Origin: Acidimicrobiales bacterium
Lineage (GTDB): Bacteria; Actinomycetota; Acidimicrobiia; Acidimicrobiales; RAAP-2
Assembly: GCA_049513455.1 (NCBI GenBank)
Contig: JBEKWB010000015.1
Location: forward strand, 4,029 to 68,028
Reading direction: 5' to 3'
Length of the DNA: 64,000 bases
Positions 11,511 to 64,000 of the stretch are shown here, in pieces. The translations under genes were made by a program, and so were the position numbers. Below the pieces are notes generated by a model. It was not told where the DNA came from. It did no database searches and saw only the letters and a list, made by a program, of their open reading frames with translations. Numbering within the stretch: the first letter of the stretch is position 1; each line of letters begins with the position of its first letter.

Positions 11511-12548
11511 GTGACGAGGACTGTGGATCTGGATCCATCAAACGAACAGAGTCTCCTCATTGAGGCCTTCGACGCGCTGTACGCCAAGTGGGCGACTCCC
11601 GAACGGGTGCGCGGAGCGGAGCCAGTTGGCTTCGACGCCGATCTGTGGCAGCAGCTGCTGCAGATCGGTGCGCTCGGGATGGGTGTCCCAGTGGAGCAAG
11701 GCGGCATGGGCGCGTCGCTACTGGACCTGGAGCTCGTGGCGGAGCGTCACGGGCGCCATCTCGCCCCGGCGCCCATGCTCGAATCACAAGCCGCGGCCCG
11801 ATTGCTGGCCCGGTGCGAGGGTGCCGCCGCGTCAGACCTCCTCGCAACCATCATGGCCGGGGAGCAGATGGTGACTCTGGCGCTGCACCCCGTCCGGGCA
11901 GAATCGCTGACCATGGTGCCCGGCGGCTCCGTGGCCGATGTCGTCCTCGCCCTCGACGGTGACCGAGTGCTCGGCGTGCCGCTGGCAGGCAACCGGCGAT
12001 CGGTACCCAATTTGGGCAGCCTATCTCTGAGCGACGTTCTGGTGCCTGCCACGACTATGGAACTCGCCCGTGGCGCGGACGCTCGTACGGTCTACGCTTC
12101 CGCTGCCGACGAATGGATGGTGTTAATGGGGGGTGCACTCGCCGGATTAGCCCAGCGCGCGCTCGAAATCGGAGTGGATTACGTGAAGCAACGAGAGGCG
12201 TTCGGTGTGCCGATCGGCTCCTTCCAGGGGGTGGCTCATCCGCTGGCGGACTCGGCCACCGCCGTGGATGGGGCGTTGTTGTTGGCGCGTAAGGCGGCTT
12301 GGGCTGGTGAGGCCTCGCCCGATCGGAGCGCCGAGTTGGCGGCCATGTCCTTCGCTTTCGCGTCCGAAGCGGCACGCGATGCGAGTTACCGGAGCCTCCA
12401 CTTTCACGGTGGGTACGGATTCATGATGGAGTACGACGTCCAGCTCTACTTCCGGCGTGCCAAGGCATGGCCGGCGGTCTTGCGCGAGCCGCGGCGGACG
12501 TACGAGCTGGTAGCCAGTCGGCGGCGGGGGTGGGGGAATGGACTTTGA
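11511..12548 (+). CDS. acyl-CoA dehydrogenase family protein, short beta-type subunit candidate
   Basis: 345-aa ORF with the ACAD fold (GMGVPVEQGGMG, AFGVPIGSFQGVAHPLAD, FHGGYGF). The C-terminus (QLYFRRAKAWPAVL) lacks the (Y/I)xGGTxEIQ/EGT segment. 11-nt overlap with the next ACAD. Confidence 0.8.
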   Translation: MTRTVDLDPSNEQSLLIEAFDALYAKWATPERVRGAEPVGFDADLWQQLLQIGALGMGVPVEQGGMGASLLDLELVAERHGRHLAPAPMLESQAAARLLARCEGAAASDLLATIMAGEQMVTLALHPVRAESLTMVPGGSVADVVLALDGDRVLGVPLAGNRRSVPNLGSLSLSDVLVPATTMELARGADARTVYASAADEWMVLMGGALAGLAQRALEIGVDYVKQREAFGVPIGSFQGVAHPLADSATAVDGALLLARKAAWAGEASPDRSAELAAMSFAFASEAARDASYRSLHFHGGYGFMMEYDVQLYFRRAKAWPAVLREPRRTYELVASRRRGWGNGL

Positions 12549-13701
12549 GATCGAAGAGAGAGGCGAGGCACTGCGCCAGGAGGTGCGTAAGTTCCTCTCT
12601 GAGGCATTGACGCCCGACGTGAAGGAGAAGATTCGGCGCACGGGTACCCACCACGACGACGGGTTCCAGAAGGCTCTGGCTGCCCGCGGTTGGATGGCCC
12701 CGGGCTGGCCTGTCGAGCTGGGGGGCCAGGGGCAGGACCCGCTCGATCTGCTGGCTTTCAACGAGGAACTCGAGCTGGCAGGCGCGCCCATGTATGGCCC
12801 CCAGACCACGCTGATGGTAGCCAACGCAGTCGCCCAGTTCGGTACCGAGCAGCAGAAGGCAGACATAATCGAGCCATCGCTGCGCGGTGCGGTGGTATTC
12901 GTTCTCGGATTCAGCGAGCCCGGTTGCGGGTCCGATGTCGCGGCTGCCAAGACACGGGCCGAGCGCGAGGGTGACGAGTGGATCATCAATGGCGCCAAAA
13001 TGTTCACCACGAACGCGCACGTGGGTGACTGCGTGCTGTTGCTGGCCCGGACCGATCCGAACCGTCCCAAGCACCAGGGACTCACGATGTTCGTGGTCCC
13101 GCTGGACAGCCCGGGCATCGAGATCCGTCCGATCTACACGCTCTCAGGTGAGCGCACGAACCTGACCTTTTACACCGACGTGCGGGTGCCGGACTCGCTC
13201 CGGATCGGTGGGGTGAACGACGGCTGGCGGGTCCTCACCTTCAGCCTGGCCGAGGAACGCTCGGGAGCCTTCGGAGGAGAGTCGGAACGTCTTTTGCAGC
13301 GGATGGAGGCATGGGCGGAAACCGGTGACGCGGCGGGCCGGCCTCACCACGAGAGCCCTGATGTCCGAGAGCGCCTCGGACGGGCGGCAACCGAGAACGA
13401 AGTGATTAGGCTCCTGTCGTGGCGCAACGCGTGGATGAGTGCGCGCGGTCGGCTGCCCGGGGTCGAGGGCTCCATGGCCAAGCTCTTCTCGTCCGAGGCG
13501 ATCACACGCCAGGGTGCGGATCTGGTGGACATGCTCGGCCCCGACGGCATCAGGCTCCAGGGGGATCCGGATGCGCCGGCCGATGGTGAGGCCGAGTGGG
13601 CCCTGCGCTACGCGCTGGGCACGACGACCTACGGCGGGACGAGTGAGATACAACGTGGCATCATCGCTGAGCGTGGGCTTGGTCTGCCCCGGTCTCGCTA
13701 A
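12538..13701 (+). CDS. acyl-CoA dehydrogenase, alpha-type partner of 11511-12548
   Basis: 387-aa ORF with FSEPGCGSDVAAAKTRA, WIINGAKMFTTNAH and TYGGTSEIQRGIIAERGLGLPRS. Confidence 0.9.
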   Translation: MDFEIEERGEALRQEVRKFLSEALTPDVKEKIRRTGTHHDDGFQKALAARGWMAPGWPVELGGQGQDPLDLLAFNEELELAGAPMYGPQTTLMVANAVAQFGTEQQKADIIEPSLRGAVVFVLGFSEPGCGSDVAAAKTRAEREGDEWIINGAKMFTTNAHVGDCVLLLARTDPNRPKHQGLTMFVVPLDSPGIEIRPIYTLSGERTNLTFYTDVRVPDSLRIGGVNDGWRVLTFSLAEERSGAFGGESERLLQRMEAWAETGDAAGRPHHESPDVRERLGRAATENEVIRLLSWRNAWMSARGRLPGVEGSMAKLFSSEAITRQGADLVDMLGPDGIRLQGDPDAPADGEAEWALRYALGTTTYGGTSEIQRGIIAERGLGLPRSR

Positions 13702-13738
13702 CCATCAATGAGTCGCCCCTCGCTGACGCTGCGAAGGC

Positions 13739-14527
13739 TCAGCGCTCCGAACGTTGTGCGACCTGCCGAACCTTGAACCGCTCGACGGCTTCGGCATGCT
13801 CCGGAATCCGCATTGAGTGCAACTCAAGGCCAAGAGATGTCTCGAGGAGCTCGCCGGTGGCCCAGCGCTGGTAGCGGTTGATGATCATTTTGGTCGCTCG
13901 AACGGCGTACAACGGCCGGGCGGCGAGATCGCGCGCGCATGCATACGTATGCTCGGCCAGCTGTTCCGATGGGAAGGCCCCGTTTACCAAATGGGCTGCG
14001 GCAGCTTCGGCGCCGCTCACGAGATGACCGCGCAAGACGAAGTCCTTCGTGCGCATCGGTCCAGCGTTGAGCAGGAGCGGGATCATGGCGCCGTCCCCAG
14101 CCAATACGCCTAGGAGAACGTGGGTGTCGCCGATGGGAGCATCATCGGCCGCATAGACAATGTCACACGACATGGCCAGCGTTGCGCCCAACCCGACCGC
14201 GGCCCCATTGACCATGGCCAAGACAGGCTTCTCGGTCGCGAGCAGCACCTGGGTCAGGTGCCAATCCCTATGCAGGACACCGTCGACCGTCGGGCTTTCC
14301 CCCATGTTGCCCACGTCTCCGCCGGAGCAGAAGGCCCGTCCAGCTCCAGTGAGGACGATGCATCCTGTCGAAGGCTCGGCGTCGGCCTCGGCGAGAGTGG
14401 CAATGAGTTGCCTTGTCATTTCCGCACCGATGGCGTTGAGGCGATCAGGTTGATTCAGGGTAACCGTGCTGACGCCCTCTTGATGGTCCAGCAGCATGAG
14501 AGGTTCGGCCGACGCCTCAACCGTCAC
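13739..14527 (-). CDS. enoyl-CoA hydratase/isomerase (crotonase) family
   Basis: 262-aa ORF with VTLNQPDRLNA, LTGAGRAFCSGGD and MVNGAAVGLG. Confidence 0.9.
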   Translation of the reverse strand: MTVEASAEPLMLLDHQEGVSTVTLNQPDRLNAIGAEMTRQLIATLAEADAEPSTGCIVLTGAGRAFCSGGDVGNMGESPTVDGVLHRDWHLTQVLLATEKPVLAMVNGAAVGLGATLAMSCDIVYAADDAPIGDTHVLLGVLAGDGAMIPLLLNAGPMRTKDFVLRGHLVSGAEAAAAHLVNGAFPSEQLAEHTYACARDLAARPLYAVRATKMIINRYQRWATGELLETSLGLELHSMRIPEHAEAVERFKVRQVAQRSER

Positions 14528-14607
14528 GTCCTCTCCCGCCTTCCTTGCCGATCGTCGCCCCTGAGCGCGGCATAGCCATCACGCATTCACCCAGGTCATT
14601 ATGGAGT

Positions 14608-14621
14608 GTTGTCTGGGCACG
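14608..14621. promoter_or_regulatory. weak match (10/14) to the recurrent CTTGTCCGGACAAG palindrome
   Basis: GTTGTCTGGGCACG in the divergent ECH/ACAD intergenic region. Weakest site, listed for completeness. Confidence 0.2.
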
Positions 14622-14719
14622 CCAATCATGCCAGATTATGGCCCTCGGGCCTACACGAATGCGTGCAAGCTGAATTCACATAAGGCATCGGGCGGCAGAG
14701 GTGCCAGCAATTGGGAGGG

Positions 14720-15865
14720 ATGATGGATCTGAGATTTTCGCCCGAGCAGGAATCGTTCCGGTCCGAGGTGCGGCAGTGGATGGCAGCGCACGTACCGACC
14801 GAAGCCGAGCCGACCGACCGGGCGGCCCTCATCGAATATCAGCGGGCGTGGCAGGCGGAGTTGGCCAAGGAGTCGTTCGTCGCCGTGCACTTCCCCGTCG
14901 AATTCGGTGGACGCGGCATGGGGTGGACTGAGAGCTACGTGGTCCAGGAGGAGATGGCACTGGCCCGGGCGCCCGAGATCGTCAACCGGGTGGCGGTGAA
15001 CCTCGTCGGCCCCACTCTGATCGAACACGGGACCACAGCACAGCGAGAGCGTTTTCTGCGCCCGATCATTACCGCAGAGGACATTTGGTGCCAGCTCTTC
15101 AGCGAGCCAGGCGCCGGTTCGGACCTGGCCTCTTTGCAGACCACGGCGGTTCGCCAGGACGGCGGTTGGCGTGTCAACGGGCAAAAGGTATGGGCCAGCA
15201 ACGCCCAGTACGCTGACTACGGTGTGCTCTTGGCTCGAACGGGTGCGTCAGAGCGGGGCCGGCCGGAAATCGGCTACTTCCTGTTCGATATGCGTCAACC
15301 GGGCGTGGAGGTCCGCCCACTGCGGCAGATGACCGGTGACGCAGACTTCAATGAGGTGTTCCTCGACAACGCCTGGGTGGGCGACGACGCAGTCGTCGGT
15401 GATCCGGCCCAGGGTTGGGGTGTGATGAAAACCACCTTGGGGTACGAGCGCAGCACCTCGCCGCGCCAGCTCATCATCCATTCTGTACTGCTTGAAGAGC
15501 TTCTCGAGGAGGCTCGGCAGCGTGTGCAGACACCAGACATCCGTCAACGGCTGGCCCGTCTCTACGCTGAGCTCCGGATCTACCGCCTCCATCTCTACCG
15601 GACGCTGAGTGATCTCGAGGCCGGGAGGCCACCGGGCGCGGCCAGCTCGGTCATCAAGCTCTTCTGGAGCGAGATGGCACAGCGCATGCACGAGGTTTCC
15701 CTGGACATGCTGGGGCTCGTAGGGATCGCCTCAGCATCGAAGCGCAGCCGCAACTATGTCTACTATCGGGCGTGCACGATCTTCGCCGGCACGTCAGAGA
15801 TCCAACGCAACACCCTCGCCGAGCAGGCGCTCGGGCTCCCTCGCGAGCCACGCCCGGCGACGTGA
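14720..15865 (+). CDS. acyl-CoA dehydrogenase
   Basis: ATG at 14720 after GGGAGGG. MMDLRFSPEQESFR.., FSEPGAGSDLASLQTTA, WRVNGQKVWASNA, IFAGTSEIQRNTLAEQALGLPREP. The ORF track begins at TTG 14711. Confidence 0.9.
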   Translation: MMDLRFSPEQESFRSEVRQWMAAHVPTEAEPTDRAALIEYQRAWQAELAKESFVAVHFPVEFGGRGMGWTESYVVQEEMALARAPEIVNRVAVNLVGPTLIEHGTTAQRERFLRPIITAEDIWCQLFSEPGAGSDLASLQTTAVRQDGGWRVNGQKVWASNAQYADYGVLLARTGASERGRPEIGYFLFDMRQPGVEVRPLRQMTGDADFNEVFLDNAWVGDDAVVGDPAQGWGVMKTTLGYERSTSPRQLIIHSVLLEELLEEARQRVQTPDIRQRLARLYAELRIYRLHLYRTLSDLEAGRPPGAASSVIKLFWSEMAQRMHEVSLDMLGLVGIASASKRSRNYVYYRACTIFAGTSEIQRNTLAEQALGLPREPRPAT

Positions 15866-16041
15866 GCGGGGCAGGCCCTCCCGGCCTCCTCTCGTTGACA
15901 GGGCTTCGTAACTAACATAGATTCAGGAGCCGCGCGGGTCCGCGACGGGATAGAGGTAGGGCGTACCGGAGACCCGACTGCGGAGGTCGAGGATCGGAGC
16001 GGTGCGCCGAGCAGACCGGTTCGGGGGGATCTTTCTTCCCG

Positions 16042-17253
16042 ATGTTGAGGAAAGTGAAATCGACTATGGCTGTGGATCTCGGATACAAGATGTTCGATTC
16101 GGACAACCACCTCTACGAGGGGACCGACGCCTTTACCCGATACCTCGACCCACAGTATCGCGACGAGTTCAAGTGGGTCAGCGACGATCGGGGCCGTCGC
16201 TACATCATCCTGCACGGCAAATTCTGGCCATACATCGGCATTCCCACCTTTGACCCGGTCTCGATCCCCGGCAGTATGGAGCTGATGTACAAAGGCAAGC
16301 TGACCAAGCGCGAGCTGGGGGAGGCCGCTCCCGTCCTGATGGAGCCATTGCGCAACCGACCCGAGTACCAGAACCGCGAAGCGCGCATCGCCCGACTCGA
16401 CGAGCAGGGCATTGAGGCGTGCTGGATGTTCCCCACCATGGTCTCGGGGATTGAGGTGCAGACCAGTGATGATCTCGGGCTGACCTACGCCCTGACCAAT
16501 GCTTTGAACCACTGGCTTCTCGAGGAGTGGGGATTCCACCACCAAGAGCGCATGTTCGTCACCCCGGCGGTGTCGCTGGCCGACCCCGAGCAAGCCCAGC
16601 GCCAGCTGGAGTTCGCCATTGAGCACGGCGCCAAGGGCGTCATGATGCGCCCGGCGCCCGTGCCCACGGAAATGGGTCCCCGCTCGCCGGGCCGACCGAT
16701 GTTCGATCGATTCTGGGGCCGAGCGGCTGAGGCGGGTATGGCCATCTTGTGCCACGCCGGTGACACCGGCTACCAGCGCTATTCCGGGGACTGGACCGGA
16801 AATTACGAGATGCAACCCTACAAGACATCGGTACCGCAGACTGACTGGATCTACGTCGAAGGACGCGCTCCCTCCGACTTCATCCTGTCCCTGATCGCGC
16901 ACGGGGCGATCGATCGGCATCCGAACTTGCAGGTGGTATCCGTGGAAAGCGGGGGACACTGGGTTCCGGGTCTCATCAAGGCCATGAAGAAGTACTACAC
17001 GCACTACCCCGAGTCGTTCTTCGGCGATCCCATCGAGCAGTTCGACAACAACGTGTGGATCTCGCCGTTCTGGGAGGACGACATTGAGGAACTCGCGGCC
17101 GTGATGCCGGTCGAGCACATTCTGGCCGGGTCGGATTGGCCGCACCCCGAAGGCCTGGCTGATCCCACTGATTTTGTAAAGGGGCTGGACGCCTTCAACG
17201 AGGCTGATCAGCGCAAGATCATGCGGGAAAACGGGCTGAGCCTGGTGCGCTGA
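16042..17253 (+). CDS. amidohydrolase-2 (metal-dependent hydrolase/decarboxylase) family protein
   Basis: 403-aa ORF with KMFDSDNHLYE near the N-terminus and C-terminal LAGSDWPHPEG. An alternative start at ATG 16066 (MAVDLGYK) is equally plausible. Confidence 0.8.
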   Translation: MLRKVKSTMAVDLGYKMFDSDNHLYEGTDAFTRYLDPQYRDEFKWVSDDRGRRYIILHGKFWPYIGIPTFDPVSIPGSMELMYKGKLTKRELGEAAPVLMEPLRNRPEYQNREARIARLDEQGIEACWMFPTMVSGIEVQTSDDLGLTYALTNALNHWLLEEWGFHHQERMFVTPAVSLADPEQAQRQLEFAIEHGAKGVMMRPAPVPTEMGPRSPGRPMFDRFWGRAAEAGMAILCHAGDTGYQRYSGDWTGNYEMQPYKTSVPQTDWIYVEGRAPSDFILSLIAHGAIDRHPNLQVVSVESGGHWVPGLIKAMKKYYTHYPESFFGDPIEQFDNNVWISPFWEDDIEELAAVMPVEHILAGSDWPHPEGLADPTDFVKGLDAFNEADQRKIMRENGLSLVR

Positions 17254-17254
17254 A

Positions 17255-18832
17255 GTGCTCGAGCCAGCCCCAGGGCGCATGACGGTATGGGATCTCGTGG
17301 AGCAGCGGGCCGAGCGGACACCCGACCGCATCTTCATGATCGATGATCGTGGCCGCAGGGTGACGTTTGCTGAGTTTCACGCCTGGTCGGCGCGCGTGGC
17401 TGCCGGGTTGTCTGCCCTGCGGATCGGCGTGGACTCGGTGGTGGCCTGGCAGATCCCCACCTGGATCGAATCGCTCGTCCTCACGTCAGCACTGAGCCGT
17501 CTGGAGGCGGTGCAGGTGCCACTCCTTCCGATCTACCGCGAACGTGAGATGCGCTACATCTTCGACTCGACGCACGCCGAGTGGTACATCGCCCCCGCAG
17601 AGTGGCGCGGCCTGAGTTTTCGCGACCTCTTCGCAAGATCGGTCGACGAAGGAACGGCACTGCAGCGATTGTGGTTGGGTGAGGACCGAAGTCTGCCCGA
17701 GACGGATGCATCGTCGATCGCGCCTTGGCCGTCGGGCGTCAAGGACGGCAACGCGGTCAAATGGATTTACCACACCTCAGGGACCTCATCGGCGCCCAAG
17801 GGGGCCCGCCACACCGACGCCTCGGTCATGGCCTCGTCGTGGGGTTGGGTCTGTTCCGGACTCGTGCGCGCTGACGACGTCACTGCCCTGGTGTTCCCGG
17901 TGACCCACATCGGCGGGGCCAATCTGCTGCAGTCCTCACTTATCACCGGTTGCGCCATGGTGGTGGTGGAGCAGTTCGGTCCCGAGGCCATCGAGGTCCT
18001 CCGTCTCGGCGGGGTCACGCTACCCGGGGCCGGCCAGGTGTTCTTCCTGGCGTACCTCGAAGAGCAGAGGCGGCGCAACGACGGCCTTTTGTTTCCGCAG
18101 GCGCGAGCTTTTGCCACCGGCGGCGCGGCAAAGAGCCCTGAGCTCCACTACATCCTCAAGCGCGAAATGGGCGCCGGATTCCTGACGTCATACGGCATGA
18201 CGGAGTGCCCGCTGGCCGTCACCTGCCCGACAGACGCTCCGGACGAGAAGATCGCCCGCACCGAAGGTCGGCCCAACATCGGGATAGAGCTCAAGGTGGT
18301 TGATGACACCGGCGCTGAAGTGCCGGCCGGGACGGCCGGAGAGATCTGCGTGAAGGGAGAACAGCTATTCGTAGGCTACGTCGACGAGGCGCTCAACCAA
18401 GAGGCGTTCGACGACCAGGGGTACCTGCGCACCGGGGACTTGGGGATCCTCGACGAGGATGGGTATCTCGCCATTGTGGGCCGGATCAAGGACGTGATCA
18501 TTCGCAAGGGCGAGAACATCAGCGCTCGCGAGATCGAGGACTTGTTGTTCTTGCACCCAGAGGTCCGGGAGGTAGCGGTCATCGGCGTTCCGGATCCCGA
18601 GGTTGGGGAGCGGTGCTGCGCCGTGGTGGTTCCGGAGACTTCCGATGCCGCCATCGACTTCGATGGGCTTGCTTCTTTTTTGCGTTCAGAAGGGTTGATG
18701 GTGCAGAAGATCCCCGAGTTGTGGCAGCAGATCGCCGATCTCCCGCGTAATGGCCAGGGAAAAGTGCTCAAGGCCGACTTACGGACGCGCTACGCCAACC
18801 TGGTCAAGGCATGGGCAGTGCGCGGATCTTGA
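17255..18832 (+). CDS. AMP-dependent acyl-CoA synthetase/ligase
   Basis: 525-aa ORF with YHTSGTSSAPKGARH (AMP motif I), SYGMTEC, YLRTGDLG and IIRKGENIS. Possible alternative start ATG 17279. Confidence 0.9.
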   Translation: MLEPAPGRMTVWDLVEQRAERTPDRIFMIDDRGRRVTFAEFHAWSARVAAGLSALRIGVDSVVAWQIPTWIESLVLTSALSRLEAVQVPLLPIYREREMRYIFDSTHAEWYIAPAEWRGLSFRDLFARSVDEGTALQRLWLGEDRSLPETDASSIAPWPSGVKDGNAVKWIYHTSGTSSAPKGARHTDASVMASSWGWVCSGLVRADDVTALVFPVTHIGGANLLQSSLITGCAMVVVEQFGPEAIEVLRLGGVTLPGAGQVFFLAYLEEQRRRNDGLLFPQARAFATGGAAKSPELHYILKREMGAGFLTSYGMTECPLAVTCPTDAPDEKIARTEGRPNIGIELKVVDDTGAEVPAGTAGEICVKGEQLFVGYVDEALNQEAFDDQGYLRTGDLGILDEDGYLAIVGRIKDVIIRKGENISAREIEDLLFLHPEVREVAVIGVPDPEVGERCCAVVVPETSDAAIDFDGLASFLRSEGLMVQKIPELWQQIADLPRNGQGKVLKADLRTRYANLVKAWAVRGS

Positions 18833-23572: not shown

Positions 23573-23588
23573 GAAGGAGACCGGTTCT

Positions 23589-47204: not shown

Positions 47205-47234
47205 TTATGAATAGCCATTGATTATCATAGCGAA

Positions 47235-48073: not shown

Positions 48074-48087
48074 CTTGCGCGGACAAG
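48074..48087. promoter_or_regulatory. site of the recurrent palindrome: CTTGCGCGGACAAG (12/14)
   Basis: The 17-mer CTTGCGCGGACAAGTAG is 16/17 identical to 61529-61545. Upstream of the SDR/ACAD/cyclase/LLM/TetR operon. Confidence 0.55.
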
Positions 48088-54937: not shown

Positions 54938-55494
54938 GAATCCTCGAGGCCGGGAGCCGACGGAGCAACCGCAGCCGCGCCAGGGGACCTGATGGGTGTC
55001 GTCGGTTCCGGGAAGTAGGGGATCGCATCGGCCTCGGACCTCCAGACCATGAAGGTGCGCTCGAAGTCGAGCACCTCCTCGCCCCGCTGATTGATCCCAC
55101 GGGTGGCGCAGGTGACGATTCCTGCCTTTGGTCGGGAGGCGGAAGACCGAACCCCTGTGATGATGCTCTCGCCGTAAAGCGTGTCGCCGACGAACACCGG
55201 CGCGGTCAAGCGGATCTCTTTCCAGCCCAGGTTGGCGATAGCGTTCTGGCTGATGTCGGCCACGGAGAGCCCCAGTACGAGGGCGACGGTCAATCCCGAG
55301 TTGACGAGCTCCTGGCCATGTTCGGACTTCTTGGCGTAGTCGGCGTTGAAGTGCAGCTGGTTGGTGTTCATGGTGAGGAGGGAGAACCAGCGATTGTCGG
55401 CCTCGCCGATCGTCCGTCCCAGCTGGTGCCGGTAGACCTGACCCAAGGCAAAGTCCTCATAGAAATTGCCCTTCTGCATGAGAAATTCAGGCAC
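54934..55494 (-). CDS. MaoC-like (R)-specific enoyl-CoA hydratase, hotdog fold
   Basis: 186-aa ORF with NQLHFNADYAKKSEHGQELVNS, VFVGDTLYGESIITGVRSS and GIVTCATRGINQRGEEVLDFERT. Confidence 0.85.
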   Translation of the reverse strand: MPEFLMQKGNFYEDFALGQVYRHQLGRTIGEADNRWFSLLTMNTNQLHFNADYAKKSEHGQELVNSGLTVALVLGLSVADISQNAIANLGWKEIRLTAPVFVGDTLYGESIITGVRSSASRPKAGIVTCATRGINQRGEEVLDFERTFMVWRSEADAIPYFPEPTTPIRSPGAAAVAPSAPGLEDS

Positions 55495-56708: not shown

Positions 56709-56722
56709 CTTGTCCGGACAAT
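56709..56722. promoter_or_regulatory. best site of the recurrent palindrome: CTTGTCCGGACAAT (13/14)
   Basis: In the divergent region between ACAD 55503-56657 (minus operon) and ACAD 56798 (plus operon). Confidence 0.6.
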
Positions 56723-58036: not shown

Positions 58037-59289
58037 ACGGGTCAGCTACCCGCCCTACACACGAGAGGTCAAAGAGTGTGAGTGACGAAAACGAATTCGA
58101 CGACATCACCGAGGGTGTTCGGGCGTTCTTGCGCTCTGAGGTGGTGCCCCGCCAGGTACGGCTAGCGGAGTCCGGCCACTCCGAGTACGGGCCGAACGGA
58201 AGGTTCAGCGACGAAGTGTTGCAGGCCTTCTCCGAAGTGCGCATGGCTTCTGCCGAGGCCGGTTTCTACTGCATCCTGGCGCCCGAAGCCGTCGGTGGGG
58301 CGGGCCTGGGGTTCGAGGCGCTCTATCGGGTGTGGGAGACGGTCTTCGACTTCTGTGGTGCCAATTACTGGCTCGGACACCAGGCGATCAGCCATTGGTC
58401 ACGCGGGCCGAGCCACCTCTATCTCCACGTCGACGAAGGGTTCCGGGAAGAGGTGCTTCCGGAGCTGTGCAGCGGGCGTCGAACGACATGCTTTGCCATG
58501 TCGGAGCCGGACGCCGGTTCCGACGTCTGGAACATGCGCACGACGGCCACCAAGGTCGAGGGGGGATGGATCCTCAACGGCACCAAGCAGTGGTCGACCA
58601 ACGCTCCCTACGCCGGCTGGGCCATCACGTTCGCCGTGACGGATCGAGAAGCATTCAATGCCCACAGGCGCGGGTTGACCGGATTCGTCGTGGACCTGAA
58701 CAGCGAGGGCGTCCTGGTGGAGAGCGTCATTCCCATGTTCGGGCACAGCGGAGGGGACGAAGGGATCGTCAGCTTCTCGGATGCCTTCGTGGCCGACCGC
58801 CAAGTAATCGGCGAGCCGGGTGATGGACTGGTCCACGCCATGTCCGGCGTCTCCTCGGGTCGCCTCTACAACAGCGGGCGGGCGGTGGGGCTGGCCCGCT
58901 GGGCCGTGGCGCGTGCGCTCTCCTACGCCGAAGAGCGCCGGACGTTCGGCTCGCCCCTGATTGAGAACCAGGCCATCGCCTTCCCGCTGGCCGATGCCGC
59001 CATGGATATCCATGCCGCCCATCTGATGGGCCTCGAAACTGCGCGGCGCCTGGATCGGGGGACGTGCACCCGAGCCGAGGTGTCCATGACCAAGACCTAC
59101 TCCACGGAGATGGCGGTTCGAGCCATCGATCACGCCATGCAGGTCCACGGGGCGATGGGCTTCACCAACGAGATGTACCTGGCGCAGGCGTGGCAGCAGA
59201 TGCGCCGCACGTGCGTGGCCGATGGCTCTTCTGAAATGATGCGGATACAGATCGTGAAGGCCCTCCGCCGGGACGGAGTGCAGTTCTAG
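58033..59289 (+). CDS. acyl-CoA dehydrogenase
   Basis: 418-aa ORF. GTGA overlap with the upstream ACAD; an alternative GTG near 58075-58080 (VSDENEFDD) is possible. Has MSEPDAGSDVWNMRTTA, WILNGTKQWSTNA and VHGAMGF. Confidence 0.85.
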   Translation: MNGSATRPTHERSKSVSDENEFDDITEGVRAFLRSEVVPRQVRLAESGHSEYGPNGRFSDEVLQAFSEVRMASAEAGFYCILAPEAVGGAGLGFEALYRVWETVFDFCGANYWLGHQAISHWSRGPSHLYLHVDEGFREEVLPELCSGRRTTCFAMSEPDAGSDVWNMRTTATKVEGGWILNGTKQWSTNAPYAGWAITFAVTDREAFNAHRRGLTGFVVDLNSEGVLVESVIPMFGHSGGDEGIVSFSDAFVADRQVIGEPGDGLVHAMSGVSSGRLYNSGRAVGLARWAVARALSYAEERRTFGSPLIENQAIAFPLADAAMDIHAAHLMGLETARRLDRGTCTRAEVSMTKTYSTEMAVRAIDHAMQVHGAMGFTNEMYLAQAWQQMRRTCVADGSSEMMRIQIVKALRRDGVQF

Positions 59290-59302: not shown

Positions 59303-60202
59303 TCAGCGGAGGGCGTTGCGCAGCGCGCGAAAGTCGTCGGCCATCGACGTCGCCGGGACGGCGTCGGTGGGATCCTCAATCTGCTCATGATGGTCGCGGA
59401 CATCCTCGGGATCGAGCACACCGTCGCGCTTCGTCCATCCCGCGGTCATGCCGACGAAGAATCGAGCGACCCGACCGCCTCCGACGCTGTACAGGTAGCC
59501 GGTCGTGGTGCACTCCTCATGGGTCAACCACGCCACGACCGCGGAGACCTGGGTCGGGTCAACTGAGTCGATCAGCTTGCCGAGCACATTCTCGGTCATT
59601 CTCGTCCTGGCGATGGGAGCGATGGCGTTCGAGGTGATGTTGTGCTTGGACCCCTCGATGGCCAGTGTGTTGGAGAAACCGACCAGGCCGGCCTTGGCGG
59701 CGGCATAGTTGCTCTGACCGAAATTGCCGAACACACCGGCGGCGGACGACGTGAAGACCACCCTTCCGAACTGCTGCTCTCGCATGTGGCGCCATGCCGG
59801 CAGGGTCACATTGAATGCACCCCTCAGGTGGACGTCGATCACGGCCCCGAACGTGTCGCCATCGCTGTTGTGGAACGCCCGATCCCGCAGGATCCCCGCG
59901 GTGTTGACCAGAATGTCGATCCGGCCGAAGTTGTCGATCGCCGTTTGCACGATGGCCCGGCCACCCTCCGGTGTCGCCACGCTGTCGAGGTTGGGTACGG
60001 CCGATCCTCCCGAAGCGGTGATCTCCTCCACCACTTGTTGCGCCGGTCCGTCGCTGGTGCCGTCGCCCTCGACGGACCCGCCGATATCGTTCACGACCAC
60101 GCTGGCACCGCGCCGCGCCAGCAGGAGAGCATGCTGGCGGCCCAGGCCACCTCCGGCTCCGGTCACTACTGCTACCCGGCCATCGAAGCGAAGTTGACTC
60201 AT
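59303..60202 (-). CDS. SDR, MFE-2/Hsd4A-like (R)-3-hydroxyacyl-CoA dehydrogenase type; paralog of 46224-47138
   Basis: 299-aa ORF. RVAVVTGAGGGLGRQHALLLARRGASVVVNDIGG.., LVNTAGILRD, YAAAKAG. Confidence 0.85.
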   Translation of the reverse strand: MSQLRFDGRVAVVTGAGGGLGRQHALLLARRGASVVVNDIGGSVEGDGTSDGPAQQVVEEITASGGSAVPNLDSVATPEGGRAIVQTAIDNFGRIDILVNTAGILRDRAFHNSDGDTFGAVIDVHLRGAFNVTLPAWRHMREQQFGRVVFTSSAAGVFGNFGQSNYAAAKAGLVGFSNTLAIEGSKHNITSNAIAPIARTRMTENVLGKLIDSVDPTQVSAVVAWLTHEECTTTGYLYSVGGGRVARFFVGMTAGWTKRDGVLDPEDVRDHHEQIEDPTDAVPATSMADDFRALRNALR

Positions 60203-60240: not shown

Positions 60241-60254
60241 CCTGTCCGGACTAG
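60241..60254. promoter_or_regulatory. site of the recurrent palindrome: CCTGTCCGGACTAG (12/14)
   Basis: In the 56-nt gap between SDR start 60202 and the first possible start (GTG 60259) of the racemase-like gene. Confidence 0.5.
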
Positions 60255-60258
60255 ATTT

Positions 60259-61518
60259 GTGCACGACGCCGAGATCATCGAGCGAGCGACGACGGCGCCA
60301 GCCGGCGCCGGATCGACGCCAGAACGAGGGGAGCCCCGCCGCGTGACGCACGTCCAACCAGTTCCACCCGGAGTGGCGGCCGAGACGCCGTCACCGCCGT
60401 CGGGGCCGCTTTGCGGTCTGCGGGTGATCGAGCTGGCTGGAATTGGTCCGTCTCCCTTCTGCGGAATGGTCCTCTCGGACATGGGCGCCGATGTTGTCCG
60501 TGTAGACCGGATCGAGAGCCGGGAGGGCGGGGATGACGCCCCACCGGCCTTGTGGGATCGCGGACGCCGATCAGTGGCATTGGACCTGAAAGACCCCGGC
60601 GACATCGAGACGCTGCTGCGCCTGGTCGACACGGCGGACGCGCTGATCGAAGGGTATCGACCGGGGGTGGTGGAGCGTCTGGGTATCGGCCCGGACATAT
60701 GCCTGGCGCGTAATCGGCGTCTCGTCTACGGGCGGGTGACCGGTTGGGGCCGCGAGGGTCCGCTGGCCCAGACGCCCGGTCACGACTTGAACTTCATCGC
60801 ACTCTCCGGCGTTCTCAACGCGATAGGCCATCACGAGGGGCGCCCGGTCCCGCCCCTCAATCTCGTCGGTGATTTCGGCGGAGGGGGGATGCTCCTGGCC
60901 CTGGGTGTGTGTGCCGCGTTGGTCCACGCCGCCCGCTCGGGCATCGGCCAGGTGGTCGATGCGGCGATGATCGACGGTTCCGCCCAGTTGATGACATCGA
61001 TCTTCGGCCTGCGCGCCCAGGGCAGGTGGAACGACGAGCGGGGCTCGAACCTCATTGATTCGGGTGCCCCGTTCTACGACGTGTACGAAACGTCAGATGG
61101 CGCGTACGTGTCAATCGCGGCGTTGGAAAGAAGATTCTTCGCCGATCTCGTCACGCGCCTGGGTCTCGCCGACGACCCGGTCATGGGGAACAGGATGGAT
61201 CCGGCTTCATGGCCTGCCATGCGACAGCGGTTCGTCGACACGTTCAAGACCAGGACCCAAGCCGCCTGGTGCGCCCTTCTCGAGGGTACCGACTGTTGCT
61301 TCGCTCCGGTGCTGAGCATGCACGACGCACCGGAGCATCCCCAGAATGCCCTGCGAAGGACCTTTGTCGATCACGATGGTGTCATCCAGCCTGCTCCGGC
61401 GCCCCGCTTCAGCGTGACGCCGGGCGGCATCTCAAGGCCCGCACCCCGCCGGGGTCAACACACCGAGGAAGTCCTGGCGGAGTGGGGGGTCGCCCCTCAC
61501 CCGGAGCGGGGAGAGTAA
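60259..61518 (+). CDS. family III CoA-transferase, alpha-methylacyl-CoA racemase-like (start uncertain)
   Basis: GPLCGLRVIELAGIGPSPFCGMVLSDMGADVVRVDRI closely resembles the racemase (Mcr/AMACR) N-terminus. About 50 non-conserved residues precede it, so the true start may be a downstream GTG (for example about 60343). Confidence 0.8.
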   Translation: MHDAEIIERATTAPAGAGSTPERGEPRRVTHVQPVPPGVAAETPSPPSGPLCGLRVIELAGIGPSPFCGMVLSDMGADVVRVDRIESREGGDDAPPALWDRGRRSVALDLKDPGDIETLLRLVDTADALIEGYRPGVVERLGIGPDICLARNRRLVYGRVTGWGREGPLAQTPGHDLNFIALSGVLNAIGHHEGRPVPPLNLVGDFGGGGMLLALGVCAALVHAARSGIGQVVDAAMIDGSAQLMTSIFGLRAQGRWNDERGSNLIDSGAPFYDVYETSDGAYVSIAALERRFFADLVTRLGLADDPVMGNRMDPASWPAMRQRFVDTFKTRTQAAWCALLEGTDCCFAPVLSMHDAPEHPQNALRRTFVDHDGVIQPAPAPRFSVTPGGISRPAPRRGQHTEEVLAEWGVAPHPERGE

Positions 61519-61528: not shown

Positions 61529-61542
61529 CTTGCACGGACAAG
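61529..61542. promoter_or_regulatory. site of the recurrent palindrome: CTTGCACGGACAAG (12/14), overlapping a -35-like TTGCAC
   Basis: TTGCAC (61530-61535), a 17-nt spacer, then TATCTT (61553-61558). About 100 nt upstream of the thiolase start. Confidence 0.55.
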
Positions 61543-61646: not shown

Positions 61647-62873
61647 ATGCCCGAAGCGTGGATCATCGAGGGTACCCGGACGCCGCGCGGGAAGGGAAAG
61701 GAGACGGGGGGGCTCCACGAGATCCACCCCCAGGAGCTGTTGGCGCAGGTGCTGCAGTCTCTGGTTGCACGCACCGGAATCGACCCGGCCGAAGTGGATG
61801 ATGTCGTCATCGGGAACAACGAGAACAACGGTGACCACGGCTCGTGCATCGGGCGGATGGCGGTGCTCGCGGCCGGGTGGCCCAACGTAACCCCCGGGGT
61901 GACGTTGAATCGGTTCTGCGGATCCGGCCAGCAGGCAGTGAACTTCGCGGCCATGGGGGTGATGTCGGGACAACAGGACCTGGTGGTGGGCGGCGGCGTG
62001 GAGTCGATGTCGCGATGGGTGCGACAAGGCCGGCTCGACTTCTCGGCGGGGAACGAGGCACTCTTGGAATTGCACCCTCTTGTTCCACAGGGGGTGTCCG
62101 CCGACCTGATCGCCACCTTGGAGAAATTCAGTCGGGCTGATCTGGACGAGTTCGCCGTGCGCAGCCAGGACCGGGCCGAGCAGGCCCAGAAGAACGGCCA
62201 CTTCGACCGGAGCATTATCCCTGTCCACGCCGCCGATGGCTCTGTGGCCCTCGACCGTGACGAGCATCCTCGTGCGGGGACGACCGTCGAATCATTGGCC
62301 GCGTTGCCACCCTCTTTCGAGCGGCAGGGTCGACGGGTTCCCGAAGGCGGAGGCAGCACGTTCGACGAGAAATGCGCTACCGTCTACCCCGAGGTGGGGG
62401 AGGTGCAACACCTTCACCACGCGGGGAACTCCTCTGGCATTGTTGATGGCGCCGGTGCACTCCTGCTCGCCAGTGATGAGTACGCCCGAGCTCACGGCCT
62501 TCGTCCGCGCGCCCGGATCGTCGCCACCGCTGTGGCGGGGGCGGAACCAGTGATCATGTTGACCGCCCCCGGCCCCGCCGCGGCGCGGTGCTTGGCCAAG
62601 GCGGAGATGAGTGTGGCGGATATCGACTTGTGGGAGATCAACGAGGCGTTCGCCGCCATCCCGCTCAAGGCCATCCGCGACCTCGACATCGACCCTGACC
62701 GGGTCAACGTCAACGGGGGTGCGATCGCCCTAGGCCACCCCATCGGTGCCACGGGGGCGATGCTCATCGGGACCGTCCTCGACGAACTCGAGCGGCAGGA
62801 CAAGTCAACGGGGTTGGTAGTCATGTGTACCGGCGGTGGAATGGGCACGGCCACCATCATCGAGCGCATCTGA
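61647..62873 (+). CDS. acetyl-CoA C-acyltransferase (thiolase)
   Basis: In-frame ATG at 61647 after AGAGGAGG. MPEAWIIEGTRTPRGKGK.., NRFCGSGQQA (active-site Cys), NGGAIALGHPIGATG, MCTGGGMG. Confidence 0.9.
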   Translation: MPEAWIIEGTRTPRGKGKETGGLHEIHPQELLAQVLQSLVARTGIDPAEVDDVVIGNNENNGDHGSCIGRMAVLAAGWPNVTPGVTLNRFCGSGQQAVNFAAMGVMSGQQDLVVGGGVESMSRWVRQGRLDFSAGNEALLELHPLVPQGVSADLIATLEKFSRADLDEFAVRSQDRAEQAQKNGHFDRSIIPVHAADGSVALDRDEHPRAGTTVESLAALPPSFERQGRRVPEGGGSTFDEKCATVYPEVGEVQHLHHAGNSSGIVDGAGALLLASDEYARAHGLRPRARIVATAVAGAEPVIMLTAPGPAAARCLAKAEMSVADIDLWEINEAFAAIPLKAIRDLDIDPDRVNVNGGAIALGHPIGATGAMLIGTVLDELERQDKSTGLVVMCTGGGMGTATIIERI

Positions 62874-62928
62874 GCGCCCTCGGCATTTCGCTTTCCGTCA
62901 TGCATCGTCCTGAGGGGGGACTAGCTCC

Positions 62929-64000
62929 GTGTCCGAGTGGGTGATTGCCGACGTGTGGGAACGCGTCGCAGCACTGCAGCCGGAGGCCGACTGCCTCATT
63001 CAGGGAACCCGCCGCGTGTCGTGGGGGCAATTCGACCAGCGGGCTGACGGTGTCGCCGATTTCCTCCTTCGCCGCGGTCTCGGGCATCAGGCGAAGGTCG
63101 CCCAGTATCTCTACAGCTGTCCCGAGTACATCGAGAGCGTCTTCGCCTGCTTCAAGGCGGCGTTGGTTCCGGTGAACACCAACTTTCGCTATCGGGCCGA
63201 TGAACTCGTGGCGCTGTGGCTCGACGCCGACATCGAGGCCGTCGTCTTCGACGTGAGTTTCACCGATCGTATCGAGGAAGTCCGTCACCGGCTCCCGGAC
63301 GTGCGTTGCTGGCTCTGCGTGTCCGATGGGACCGGTGCCGCGCCGTCGTGGGCCACCCCCTTCGAGGAGGCGACGCGCACCGATGCGCCACATCGGCGGA
63401 CCGTCCCCCCCTGGGGGCGGAGCCCCGACGATCTCGTGCTCCTCTACACCGGAGGCACGACCGGACAGCCGAAAGGGGTCATGTGGCGACAAGATGACGT
63501 CTTTGGCATGCAGAACGAAGTGGGGGGCGTGCGCTATCGCGCTGAGGCAGGGATCGAAGGGGTGGAGCAGGCTCTGGCGGGCCGTCGCCACCCACCTCCC
63601 CGGCTGGTTCCCTGCGCCCCCCTGGTCCATGGCACGGGAGGATTCTCCGCGTACGCTGTCCTCAGCGACGGCGGTGCGGTCGTCCTGTTGGAAGGGCGGT
63701 CATTCTCAGCCGGCGAACTGTTGGACACTGTCCAACGCGAGCGAGTGACCCAACTGGCCATTGTCGGCGATGCCTTCAGCCGCCCCATCGTCTCCGAACT
63801 CGATGCCCACCCGGGGCGGTGGGACCTCTCGTCGCTGTGGCTCATCGTTTCGTCGGGCATGATCTGGAGCCACCAGAGCAAGGCCGACCTGCTGCGCCAC
63901 CTGCCACACCTTCTTTGTGTCGATTCGCTCGGTTCCTCCGAAGCGATCGGGATCGGGATGTCCCGGACCTCCAGCGGTGCGGCATCCGGGGGCGAGAGAT
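62929..64000 (+). CDS. AMP-dependent acyl-CoA synthetase (FadD17/FadD19-like), 5' part; the gene runs off the right edge
   Basis: Manual translation from GTG 62929, after GAGGGGGGA with an 8-nt spacer: VSEWVIADVWERVAALQPEADCLIQGTRRVSWGQF..LLYTGGTTGQPKGVMWRQDDVF..SSGMIW.. The frame stays open to 64000. Absent from the ORF track because there is no stop. Confidence 0.85.
   Translation, partial: MSEWVIADVWERVAALQPEADCLIQGTRRVSWGQFDQRADGVADFLLRRGLGHQAKVAQYLYSCPEYIESVFACFKAALVPVNTNFRYRADELVALWLDADIEAVVFDVSFTDRIEEVRHRLPDVRCWLCVSDGTGAAPSWATPFEEATRTDAPHRRTVPPWGRSPDDLVLLYTGGTTGQPKGVMWRQDDVFGMQNEVGGVRYRAEAGIEGVEQALAGRRHPPPRLVPCAPLVHGTGGFSAYAVLSDGGAVVLLEGRSFSAGELLDTVQRERVTQLAIVGDAFSRPIVSELDAHPGRWDLSSLWLIVSSGMIWSHQSKADLLRHLPHLLCVDSLGSSEAIGIGMSRTSSGAASGGER

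Follow-up and report, generated by a model that had tools for sequence, protein, structure and literature searches.

A composite acyl-CoA catabolic island with a predicted regulon for a bulky methyl-branched acid in an uncultured soil actinomycete

Gene content of the acyl-CoA block

The window analysed here, a 64,000-nucleotide stretch of contig JBEKWB010000015.1, is from an uncultured soil actinomycete (phylum Actinomycetota) and carries, from position 11511 to its end at 64000, a dense block of genes for acyl-CoA metabolism. We read this block as a composite acyl-CoA catabolic island, the larger part of which is probably a regulon for the breakdown of a bulky methyl-branched acid by β-oxidation. 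Genes were called by third-position GC (about 0.8 in a window of about 65% GC), the predicted genes were scanned against Pfam, with the census covering 11511–64000, and individual genes were compared with NCBIfam and the Protein Data Bank (PDB). Five start codons were revised from homologue gene calls and inspection of N-termini; before this revision, the long open reading frames (ORFs) of g56 and g57 began at 60259 and 61530, respectively, both on the + strand. Independent gene calls on a JGI contig with 99.995% identity to window positions 16998–38215 agree with those used here.

An earlier reading of the bare sequence, made without database searches (the sequence-only reading), had counted the enzyme families of the block, including just one thiolase, and the Pfam scan reproduced this tally exactly in every category. 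There are ten acyl-CoA dehydrogenases (ACADs; g12, g13, g15, g19, g35, g36, g45, g52, g53 and g54), six ECH_1 crotonases (g14, g20, g21, g40, g43 and g49), one MaoC hydratase (g51), seven short-chain dehydrogenases/reductases (SDRs; g24, g29, g33, g34, g42, g44 and g55), four family III CoA-transferase (CoA_transf_3) proteins (g26, g30, g31 and g56), four CoA ligases (AMP-binding g17, g23 and g58 plus the NDP-forming acyl-CoA synthetase g41) and three luciferase-like monooxygenase (LLM) oxidoreductases (g28, g47 and g50). Single genes encode a medium-chain dehydrogenase/reductase (MDR) of the enone-reductase type (g18), an Amidohydro_2 protein (g16), a cyclase (g46), a vicinal oxygen chelate (VOC) protein (g25) and the thiolase (g57). 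Absent from the earlier tally were two TetR regulators (g22 and g48, the latter starting at 52387 on the + strand), two secreted Peripla_BP_6 proteins (g27 and g39), two APH kinases (g37 and g38) and a 340-amino-acid protein with no Pfam match (g32).

Acyl-CoA enzyme families account for about 33 of the 47 genes. Lipid metabolism takes up only about 6% of genes even in lipid-rich Mycobacterium tuberculosis, so this clustering is far beyond chance. Paralogues within the block are mostly 30–47% identical (exceptionally, two SDRs share 59% and the two binding proteins 76%) and are therefore mostly old, which means that recent tandem duplication does not explain the density. The block is arranged, on both strands, in about 17 short transcription units, and nine of the promoter regions are divergent. 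In the NCBIfam comparison, which covered the ACADs, crotonases, transferases, ligases, SDRs and LLM proteins, a curated cut-off was passed only by g28, g50, g42 and g57.

A conserved operator-like palindrome

A k-mer comparison of the intergenic regions identified a perfect 12-bp palindrome, TTGTCCGGACAA, at position 56710, with close variants elsewhere. At up to two mismatches, the window contains 10 matches against 2.43 expected, a number reached in none of 100 shuffles, and nine of the ten fall within the intergenic 7.9% of the window as defined by the revised starts (binomial P 1.1e-9). These intergenic sites are 28–180 bp from start codons, share invariant G3, C6, G7 and C10, and are absent left of 29.7 kb. 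They precede g27, g31/g32, g36/g37 (two sites), g40/g41, g44, g52/g53, g55/g56 and g57, and are listed here with no strand assigned:

29722–29733: operator-like site, TTGTCCGTACAG; 79 bp upstream of g27
34329–34340: operator-like site, TTGTACGGACAA; divergent g31/g32 promoter region
39224–39235: operator-like site, TTGTCCGTACAG; divergent g36/g37 region
39314–39325: operator-like site, GTGTCCGTACAA; divergent g36/g37 region
43947–43958: operator-like site, CTGTCCGGACAA; divergent g40/g41 region
48075–48086: operator-like site, TTGCGCGGACAA; upstream of g44
56710–56721: perfect operator-like site, TTGTCCGGACAA; divergent g52/g53 region
60242–60253: operator-like site, CTGTCCGGACTA; divergent g55/g56 region
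61530–61541: operator-like site, TTGCACGGACAA; upstream of g57

Twenty related loci (L001–L020), whose anchor protein is only 61–97% identical, were compared with the window. In nearly every one of them, motifs like TTGTCCGGACAA stand at the corresponding intergenic positions and thus form a phylogenetic footprint. A counterpart of the 34329 site is kept in L004, L006–L009, L011, L012, L017 and L020, and one of the 43947 site in L009, L014, L016, L017 and L020, while a perfect copy of TTGTCCGGACAA lies 38 bp upstream of the g32 homologue in L004. In L020, the site matching 48075 precedes an insert of binding-protein and ABC-transporter genes between the equivalents of g43 and g44. No intergenic site of this kind was found in L024, where a homologue of g26 stands in an unrelated context.

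Because the motif recurs at matching intergenic positions in related contigs, we read the stretch that starts at about 29.6 kb and runs to the window end or beyond as one conserved regulon. It would comprise at least 32 genes in about 12 transcription units, or about two thirds of the acyl-CoA block, and we consider the whole explanation built on it rather probable. The sequence-only reading had treated the 52 kb as a single functional unit; this does not hold, given that the conserved operator is found only from about 29.6 kb rightwards and that a module to its left, g22–g26, occurs elsewhere without the regulon. Known operators gave no comparable picture. The KstR operator TnnAACnnGTTnnA is not found in the promoter regions (its one match, against 0.2 expected, is inside the g56 coding sequence), the KstR2 operator AnCAAGnnCTTGnT has no matches, and a search for long palindromes in the intergenic regions revealed nothing shared. 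A literature search for TTGTCCGGACAA as an operator returned only unrelated eukaryotic matches, with no bacterial report found.

Genes of the predicted regulon

The 32 genes from g27 to the window end are as follows, with the database evidence for each assignment:

g27, 28264–29643 (− strand): secreted solute-binding protein (Peripla_BP_6), first gene of the regulon; Pfam, signal-peptide-like N-terminus
g28, 29815–30828 (−): F420-dependent LLM oxidoreductase, Rv3093c family; TIGR03841 316.2 bits, above the 213.65 cut-off
g29, 30887–31693 (−): SDR; Pfam; best NCBIfam match, sub-threshold, is trans-4-hydroxycyclohexanecarboxylate dehydrogenase
g30, 31870–33084 (−): catalytic subunit of a family III CoA-transferase pair, BbsF-like; best PDB match 9fn0_B (BbsF), E 4.7e-61; catalytic Asp present
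g31, 33098–34240 (−): divergent partner of g30; catalytic Asp replaced by Ser in the alignment
g32, 34396–35418 (+): rare tandem-VOC protein, 340 amino acids; no Pfam or NCBIfam match
g33, 35421–36206 (+): SDR; Pfam; adjacency to g32 conserved
g34, 36252–37025 (+): SDR; Pfam
g35, 37037–38182 (−): ACAD alpha subunit, ChsE4/Tcur3483-like; PDB 6wy8 E 2e-53, 4x28 E 2e-50
g36, 38182–39183 (−): ACAD beta subunit, no middle domain; Pfam; IpdE2-like, sub-threshold; L020 orthologue of 333 amino acids
g37, 39353–40405 (+): APH/EcKL-family small-molecule kinase, HADLHLGN motif; Pfam; L020 orthologue of 350 amino acids
g38, 40398–41513 (+): APH-family kinase, WGDARLGN and DWE motifs; Pfam E 5e-28
g39, 41524–42927 (−): secreted solute-binding protein, 76% identical to g27; Pfam, signal peptide
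g40, 42972–43889 (−): crotonase; Pfam; orthologues 77–97% identical in relatives
g41, 44138–46264 (+): NDP-forming acyl-CoA synthetase, lineage-specific subfamily; Pfam
g42, 46224–47138 (−): SDR of about 300 amino acids, PRK07791 subfamily; NF005861 393.5 bits, above the 373 cut-off
g43, 47235–48005 (+): crotonase; Pfam E 4e-53
g44, 48219–48992 (+): SDR; Pfam
g45, 49038–50246 (+): ACAD of the ordinary homotetramer type; PDB search
g46, 50280–51176 (+): cyclase-family (PF04199) metal hydrolase; Pfam
g47, 51222–52343 (+): LLM oxidoreductase; Pfam; all NCBIfam matches sub-threshold
g48, 52387–53148 (+): TetR regulator (TetR_C_24); Pfam
g49, 53160–53903 (−): crotonase; Pfam; 59% identical orthologue adjoins the g32 homologue in L002
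g50, 53900–54937 (−): F420-dependent LLM oxidoreductase, MSMEG_2256 family; TIGR03617 474.8 bits, above the 278.15 cut-off
g51, 54934–55494 (−): MaoC (R)-specific hydratase, 186 amino acids; Pfam; RipB/Ich-like at 181 bits against a 340 cut-off
g52, 55503–56657 (−): ACAD; Pfam, NCBIfam
g53, 56798–58036 (+): ACAD; Pfam, NCBIfam; 4-bp overlap with g54
g54, 58033–59289 (+): ordinary ACAD; PDB search; orthologues in L002 and L004
g55, 59303–60202 (−): SDR of about 300 amino acids; Pfam, NCBIfam
g56, 60406–61518 (+; start approximate): family III protein of the alpha-methylacyl-CoA racemase (MCR) type
g57, 61647–62873 (+): degradative thiolase of the FadA (Rv0859) type; PDB 4b3h E 4e-112; NF006090 547.7 bits, above the 514 cut-off
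g58, 62929–64000 (+): AMP-forming acyl-CoA ligase, cut by the window end; Pfam

As the only regulator gene within the regulon, g48 is the candidate for the operator-binding protein. The dehydrogenases include the heteromeric type: the sequence-only reading had proposed alpha/beta ACADs, and two such pairs are indeed present, with g35 closest to Tcur3483 and to PDB 4x28 (which we take to be the M. tuberculosis ChsE4-ChsE5 enzyme) and the beta subunits g12 and g36 closest to the IpdE2 model (115–135 bits against a cut-off of 450). Five ACADs score best against the large subunit of pimeloyl-CoA dehydrogenase (PimC), at 130–198 bits against a cut-off of 624. Assignment of g45 and g54 to the ACAD11/LvaC type was considered and ruled out, since ACAD11 (8v3v) is not among the PDB matches returned for them; it is likewise absent from those returned for g35.

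Several activating enzymes are encoded. Within the transferase pair, g31 is nearer to BbsE (9fn0_A, E 1.2e-15) than to BbsF (E 1.9e-11), with other transferases scoring higher, and g30, like g26 further left, scores best against dicarboxylate transferases. The synthetase g41 belongs to a subfamily of 29 proteins that are at least 54% identical, several of them encoded on contigs with a g32 homologue, beyond which identity drops sharply to 40% or less. The truncated ligase g58 scores 335 bits against NF005863 over the first 347 of 540 model positions. The two kinases both retain the catalytic Asp and Asn and are of Rv3168-type likeness; g38 matches PDB 9fsg and 3ats at about 1e-36, and the ACAD11 kinase domain weakly, at 1e-10.

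The catalytic residues of M. tuberculosis MCR are His126, Asp156 and Glu241 (and Asn152) (PMC10967716). In the long ORF of g56, the series His175, Asn201, Asp205 and Glu290 has offsets of +26, +30 and +115, which is exactly the 126/152/156/241 spacing of MCR and marks g56 as a predicted racemase: judged on these residues, it is an MCR-type enzyme on the family III CoA-transferase fold. The sequence-only reading had noted a racemase-like transferase, which holds for g56 only; g26 and g30 look like true CoA-transferases of the dicarboxylate/BbsF type, and g31 is a degenerate partner.

The tandem-VOC protein g32

Proteins related to g32 are rare. Only 55 homologues were found among 5.8 billion sequences, nearly all of them metagenomic; a pattern-based scan of species-representative genomes found them in one genome only, that of an uncultured member of the Actinomycetes assembled from a metagenome, with two copies; and a hidden Markov model search of 1.84e9 representative proteins gave 128 matches, the core family being a single 50%-identity cluster. 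An AlphaFold2 model (pLDDT 75.8, pTM 0.81) has two VOC modules. In Foldseek searches with this model, the whole protein was nearest to hydroxymandelate synthase and 4-hydroxyphenylpyruvate dioxygenase, and the C-terminal half to methylmalonyl-CoA epimerase (TM-score 0.75–0.79 normalised to the epimerase), which the g32 family profile also matches (E 5e-7), an EPTREDS...GEG motif being common to both.

Despite the similar fold of this half, g32 differs from the epimerase in having two modules over 340 amino acids, in losing the HH metal-ligand pair to Trp274 and a variable residue, and in replacing Glu43 by the invariant Ser237, such that only Glu251 and Glu323 are kept. The single VOC module, His/Gln/His/Glu metal site and two catalytic Glu residues that would mark an epimerase are therefore not found in g32. 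The family has many invariant Arg residues and one invariant His only, which makes a 2-His-1-carboxylate site unlikely. Distant relatives of g32 give only weak Glyoxalase_4 signals, and a profile built from them detects g25 (E 4.8e-7), which is thus a distant relative. As g25 and g32 each adjoin a family III CoA-transferase, the pairing of tandem-VOC protein and transferase recurs.

Conservation of the gene set in relatives

L008, L009, L017 and L020 keep the genes between g29 or g30 and g41 in the order of the window, L020 as far as g47, and shorter related contigs carry parts of the same order. In distant relatives (anchor 61–76% identical), the g32 homologue is surrounded by the same gene set in other arrangements, with the transferase pair, a g37-type kinase, a g49-type crotonase, an NDP-forming synthetase, a g58-type ligase and an α2β2 ACAD. 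The g32 homologue is directly beside the g37-type kinase in three distant loci (L001, L013 and L018), and members of the g41 subfamily share contigs with members of the g32 family.

The insert in L020 (about 85% nucleotide identity to the window) spans 14123–18967 of that locus; besides the binding protein, it encodes an ABC permease fused to an ATPase and a further ATPase, the permease and ATPase being part of the same operon. These genes are not in the window, which instead has the extra stand-alone g27 and g39 and the SDR g42. In L001 (GCA_021733565.1), two convergent g32-family paralogues lie at 5039–10714 beside genes for a Baeyer-Villiger-type flavin monooxygenase, an SDR and an esterase, a neighbourhood suggestive of a connection with ketone or lactone chemistry in this distant relative.

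A proposed route for a bulky methyl-branched acid

The substrate of the regulon is most likely a bulky methyl-branched carboxylic acid, possibly alicyclic or dicarboxylic, that could resemble an isoprenoid or the side chain of a steroid. In the route proposed here, we infer the order of steps and the class of substrate, as well as the role of g48 as a repressor. The repressor would bind the TTGTCCGGACAA operator and release it on meeting the substrate or its CoA ester, the roughly 12 units remaining off until then. The secreted proteins g27 and g39 would capture the organic acid, for which relatives carry a matching ABC permease and ATPase, and CoA activation would follow through the BbsEF-like g30/g31, the NDP-forming g41 or the AMP ligase g58. 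The MCR-type g56 would then invert 2-methyl stereocentres, a stage at which the epimerase-like g32 may also act. Chain shortening of the β-oxidation type could be carried out by g35/g36, four further ACADs, three crotonases, the MaoC hydratase, six SDRs and the FadA-type thiolase. Lastly, the two F420-dependent LLM proteins, the third LLM protein, the cyclase-family hydrolase and the two APH-type kinases would treat groups that ordinary β-oxidation cannot. A non-standard, methyl-branched acyl chain had already been proposed by the sequence-only reading, and this appears reasonable.

Some observations weigh against this interpretation. The g42/g43 region is the only divergent promoter region of the regulon without an operator-like site; its sequence at 47180–47234, gtagaaaaactagaaaaattatgaatagccattgattatcatagcgaa, is strikingly AT-rich for a 65% GC genome. 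The GT-N4-AC core of the operator would also suit a GntR-type protein, of which there is none in the window, and no regulator gene adjoins the core genes in L001, L002 or L020. The sole thiolase is of the general fatty-acid type and, as actinobacterial genomes are rich in paralogues, some genes of the block may serve ordinary fatty acids. Curated cut-offs are reached only by two LLM proteins, one SDR and the thiolase, which makes the substrate specificities guesses. Finally, the window stops inside g58, so that the regulon reaches at least this far.

A more specific and doubtful proposal concerns the conserved core of g32, the two kinases, the α2β2 ACAD, the BbsEF-like pair and the NDP-forming synthetase under the TTGTCCGGACAA operator. 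This core might perform an undescribed processing of bulky branched acyl-CoAs, in which the kinases phosphorylate a hydroxyl of the CoA ester and g32, Arg-rich and without a metal site, removes the alpha-proton and expels the phosphate. The protein would then be a VOC-fold counterpart of the LvaC/ACAD11 elimination step. An isoprenoid acid or a methyl-branched dicarboxylic membrane lipid, abundant in the host soils, could serve as the natural substrate.

Actinobacterial genomes often contain islands of ACAD and crotonase genes, most of which remain lists of paralogues without assigned substrates. In the present case, a short conserved operator tells the genes that form a set from those that merely adjoin it, and the 52-kb list becomes a testable regulon, with about 32 genes, of an uncultured lineage. 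As a whole, this is a known kind of system, an actinobacterial acyl-CoA catabolic regulon, with a new and rare tandem-VOC family and an operator for which the literature search found no bacterial report. The predicted regulon unites parts known from separate pathways, namely a steroid-type α2β2 dehydrogenase, an MCR racemase, a benzylsuccinate-type transferase pair and APH kinases. Should the regulon indeed act on a soil lipid that is recalcitrant and branched or alicyclic, it would represent a new route of carbon turnover and a source of new enzymes for bulky CoA esters.

Comparison with known pathways

Among the alternatives is the degradation of a dicarboxylic or substituted-succinate acid by a Bbs- or Pim-like pathway, with a succinyl-CoA-dependent transferase, heteromeric ACADs, a hydratase, paired SDRs and a thiolase. 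The bbs operon of anaerobic toluene degraders (BbsEF, BbsG, BbsH, BbsCD and BbsAB) likewise combines a two-subunit family III transferase (here, the putative pair g30/g31), an ACAD, a crotonase, two adjacent SDRs and a thiolase, and pimFABCDE of Rhodopseudomonas palustris has large and small ACAD subunits and Peripla_BP_6 binding proteins of an ABC importer. This reading draws on the similarity of g30 to BbsF and of g31 to BbsE rather than BbsF, on the best scores of all the family III transferases, which are with dicarboxylate enzymes (mesaconate, glutarate, oxalate and hydroxymethylglutarate), on the PimC-like scores of five ACADs, on itaconyl-CoA hydratase RipB/Ich as the sole family match of the MaoC protein g51, and on the adjacent SDRs g33 and g34, which recall BbsCD (BbsD is among the top 10 PDB matches of g33). 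However, all these matches are far below curated cut-offs (for PimC, 130–198 against 624 bits), there is no BbsAB-type thiolase with a DUF35 subunit, and an MCR racemase is part of neither pathway. The present system further differs from bbs in its F420-using actinomycete host, the missing catalytic Asp of g31, low identity and many extra enzymes, and from pim in its racemase, kinases, LLM proteins and VOC protein. We therefore regard a Bbs- or Pim-like pathway as unlikely, although it is compatible with the methyl-branched acid favoured above, as the substrate could be a methyl-branched dicarboxylate.

The KstR regulon for cholesterol in M. tuberculosis comprises Cyp125, FadD19, MCR, ChsE4-ChsE5, EchA19/ChsH3, ChsB1/Hsd4A, FadA5, ChsE1-E2, ChsH1-H2 and Ltp2. 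It shares with the predicted regulon an α2β2 ACAD (here, the putative pair g35/g36), an MCR with identical catalytic residues, several crotonases and SDRs, acyl-CoA ligases, a bulky methyl-branched acyl-CoA as (here, probable) substrate and control by a TetR-type repressor (here, the candidate g48) through a palindromic operator. One might thus suppose a divergent cluster for sterol or bile-acid side chains, in which a P450, CoA ligation, MCR, ChsE4-ChsE5, a hydratase, Hsd4A and a thiolase act in turn, following the logic of cholesterol side-chain degradation (PMC8204306), and the ring genes lie beyond the window. The closeness of g35/g36 to ChsE4-ChsE5 and Tcur3483, the racemase g56, the SDRs g42 and g55 of about 300 amino acids, a cytochrome P450 gene with its own TetR gene upstream of the block (5723–6919) and a sub-threshold likeness of g34 and g44 to 7-alpha-hydroxysteroid dehydrogenase are all in keeping with this. 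Nevertheless, no promoter region has a KstR or KstR2 operator, and the 64 kb are without Ltp2, the ChsH1/ChsH2 pair, Mce, KshAB and HsaABCD. The window contains one stand-alone MaoC gene only, with no DUF35 or SCP2-type thiolase-like gene and no family I CoA-transferase of the IpdAB type. The models for IpdE2, EchA19, CasG and FadD3 all score far below their cut-offs, and the FadA (Rv0859)-type thiolase reaches only 322 bits against the steroid 3-ketoacyl-CoA thiolase model, whose cut-off is 515. The known pathway has no role for the BbsEF-like pair, the NDP-forming synthetase, the APH kinases or the tandem-VOC protein, which the predicted regulon adds together with F420-dependent LLM proteins and secreted ABC binding proteins, and Mce4 and the cholesterol operator sequence are missing here.

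On this evidence a sterol or bile-acid side-chain cluster is improbable, and the predicted regulon would work most like the cholesterol side-chain pathway while lacking the features that define membership in it. The resemblance to steroid clusters noted in the sequence-only reading holds for the ChsE4-ChsE5-like ACAD and the racemase and breaks down at the thiolase, which is not of the FadA5 type. As it had stated, the Ltp2/ChsH pair, Mce genes and ring-opening genes, whether of the Rieske or the Hsa type, are absent from the window in the Pfam scans. A gene-for-gene match to a canonical pathway, which would have spoken against that reading, was not found either, given the absence of KstR/KstR2 boxes, Ltp2/ChsH and a FadA5-type thiolase and the mostly sub-threshold family models.

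Lower still in probability is a pathway for 4-hydroxy acids or lactones of the Lva or ACAD10–ACAD11 type as the function of the core. In this pathway, the hydroxyacyl-CoA formed by an SDR would be phosphorylated by an APH-type kinase and would then lose its phosphate on an ACAD-fold enzyme that has an Asp as catalytic base and an Arg/His/Arg helix, yielding an enoyl-CoA (PMC12440821). As in LvaABCDE and mammalian ACAD10/ACAD11, APH-family kinases are found beside ACAD and SDR genes, here as two kinase genes divergent from the ACAD pair; g38 has its weak likeness to the ACAD11 kinase domain (E 1e-10) and to 3dxp, an APH-fold protein deposited as a 'putative acyl-CoA dehydrogenase'; and L001 has a Baeyer-Villiger-type monooxygenase and an esterase beside the homologues. 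In contrast, the adjoining ACAD pair is ChsE4-ChsE5-like, none of the ACADs tested (g35, g45 and g54) is of the LvaC or ACAD11 type, and the kinases are far closer to Rv3168-type proteins (3ats, 9fsg) than to ACAD11.

A chance neighbourhood of housekeeping β-oxidation paralogues with no common function or regulation, as the left third without operator, one of its modules being found alone elsewhere, the very wide conservation of g26 (3168 close homologues), the general FadA type of the thiolase and the approximately 17 short transcription units on both strands might suggest, is very improbable in view of the phylogenetically conserved operator common to the units, the conserved order of the core genes and their reshuffling as the same set around g32 homologues in distant genomes, and the co-occurrence of the lineage-restricted g32 and g41 subfamilies.

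Modules to the left of the regulon

The remaining 18 kb of the block (11.5–29.6 kb) carry fifteen genes:

g12, 11511–12548 (+): ACAD beta-type subunit, no middle domain; Pfam; best model IpdE2, 134.9 bits against a 450 cut-off
g13, 12538–13701 (+): ACAD alpha-type subunit; Pfam; like the PimC large subunit, sub-threshold
g14, 13739–14527 (−): crotonase (enoyl-CoA hydratase/isomerase family); Pfam ECH_1 E 7e-43
g15, 14711–15865 (+): ACAD; Pfam; PimC-like, sub-threshold
g16, 16042–17253 (+): Amidohydro_2 metal-dependent hydrolase; Pfam E 2.4e-25; no NCBIfam match
g17, 17255–18832 (+): AMP-forming acyl-CoA ligase; Pfam; below NCBIfam cut-offs
g18, 18804–19871 (−): MDR protein of the NADPH enone/alkenal reductase type; Pfam ADH_N_2; CurA-like, 293.6 bits against a 440 cut-off
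g19, 19868–21004 (−): ACAD; Pfam, NCBIfam
g20, 21036–21818 (−): crotonase; Pfam; 260 amino acids in the gene calls of same-strain contig L022
g21, 21815–22609 (−): crotonase; Pfam ECH_1 E 9e-49
g22, 22719–23282 (−): TetR regulator (TetR_C_38), divergent from g23; Pfam
g23, 23589–25226 (+): AMP-forming acyl-CoA ligase; Pfam; below NCBIfam cut-offs
g24, 25267–26082 (+): SDR; Pfam
g25, 26101–26982 (+): two-domain VOC protein; weak Pfam Glyoxalase_4 match
g26, 26998–28215 (−): family III CoA-transferase, catalytic Asp present in the alignment; Pfam E 2.5e-105

The overlap of g12 and g13 makes translational coupling probable. The module g22–g26 (TetR regulator, ligase, SDR, VOC protein and transferase) is found in other genomes with extra genes and no regulon beside it, and the pairing of the TetR gene with a g23-like ligase gene is kept in L024 and on the P0177 contig. 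Homologues of g26 are abundant (3168 at E ≤ 1e-120), those of about 70% identity being in Acidimicrobiales and in other Actinomycetota metagenome-assembled genomes, and a VOC protein of about 293 amino acids, homologous to g25, always accompanies the g26-type transferase. This pair looks like a widespread unit without a named family. For g25 itself, an assignment as a ring-cleavage dioxygenase of the HsaC/BphC type was ruled out, as it has no sequence homologue in the PDB at E ≤ 1.

When the left 18 kb and the region upstream of it were searched for another shared operator, no k-mer family rose above shuffled controls. An exact 10-mer, AGACCGGTTC, does occur at 16013–16022 and 23578–23587, 1–20 bp upstream of the starts of g16 and g23; with 9 matches in the window where 5.6 are expected, the pattern shows no enrichment and could be a weak operator for the TetR protein g22, or chance. 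Since the g22–g26 module is conserved elsewhere without the regulon and the left part has no shared motif, we read the left 18 kb as separately regulated acyl-CoA modules alongside the regulon.

Other features of the window

A megablast search of 24 kb against PLSDB for a plasmid origin gave no match, an exact-protein look-up of g55 returned no record, Rfam and tRNA scans detected no non-coding RNAs, and a broad literature query for a similar cluster found nothing.

Two modules that resemble each other precede the block, at 1901–10139. The first consists of a TetR gene (1901, +), a binding-protein-like gene without a signal peptide (2527–3606, +) and a DapB-like oxidoreductase gene (3597, +). 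The second has a TetR gene (5048, −), the cytochrome P450 gene (5723–6919, +), a DapB-like oxidoreductase gene (6814, +), a binding-protein-like gene without a signal peptide (7956, +) and a DUF7064 gene (9144, +). The P450 could carry out the first oxidation of a hydrophobic substrate. Between these modules and the block, the gaps at 10140–10540 (401 bp) and 10970–11510 (541 bp) contain no convincing ORF, Rfam family or tRNA, and two weak ORFs (10541–10969 and 10908–11456, both −) have no Pfam match and poor coding statistics.

At the left edge, positions 1–210 (−) encode the C-terminal end of another crotonase, which indicates that acyl-CoA genes extend past the window on both sides. Close to it, a 125-amino-acid ORF at 1284–1661 (−) matches only the last 52 positions of a Glu/Leu/Phe/Val dehydrogenase domain and may be a gene remnant. 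In the unrelated genome of L024, a reverse-transcriptase (RVT_1) gene lies at 18152–19519, near the g26 homologue, and may belong to a group II intron or retron.

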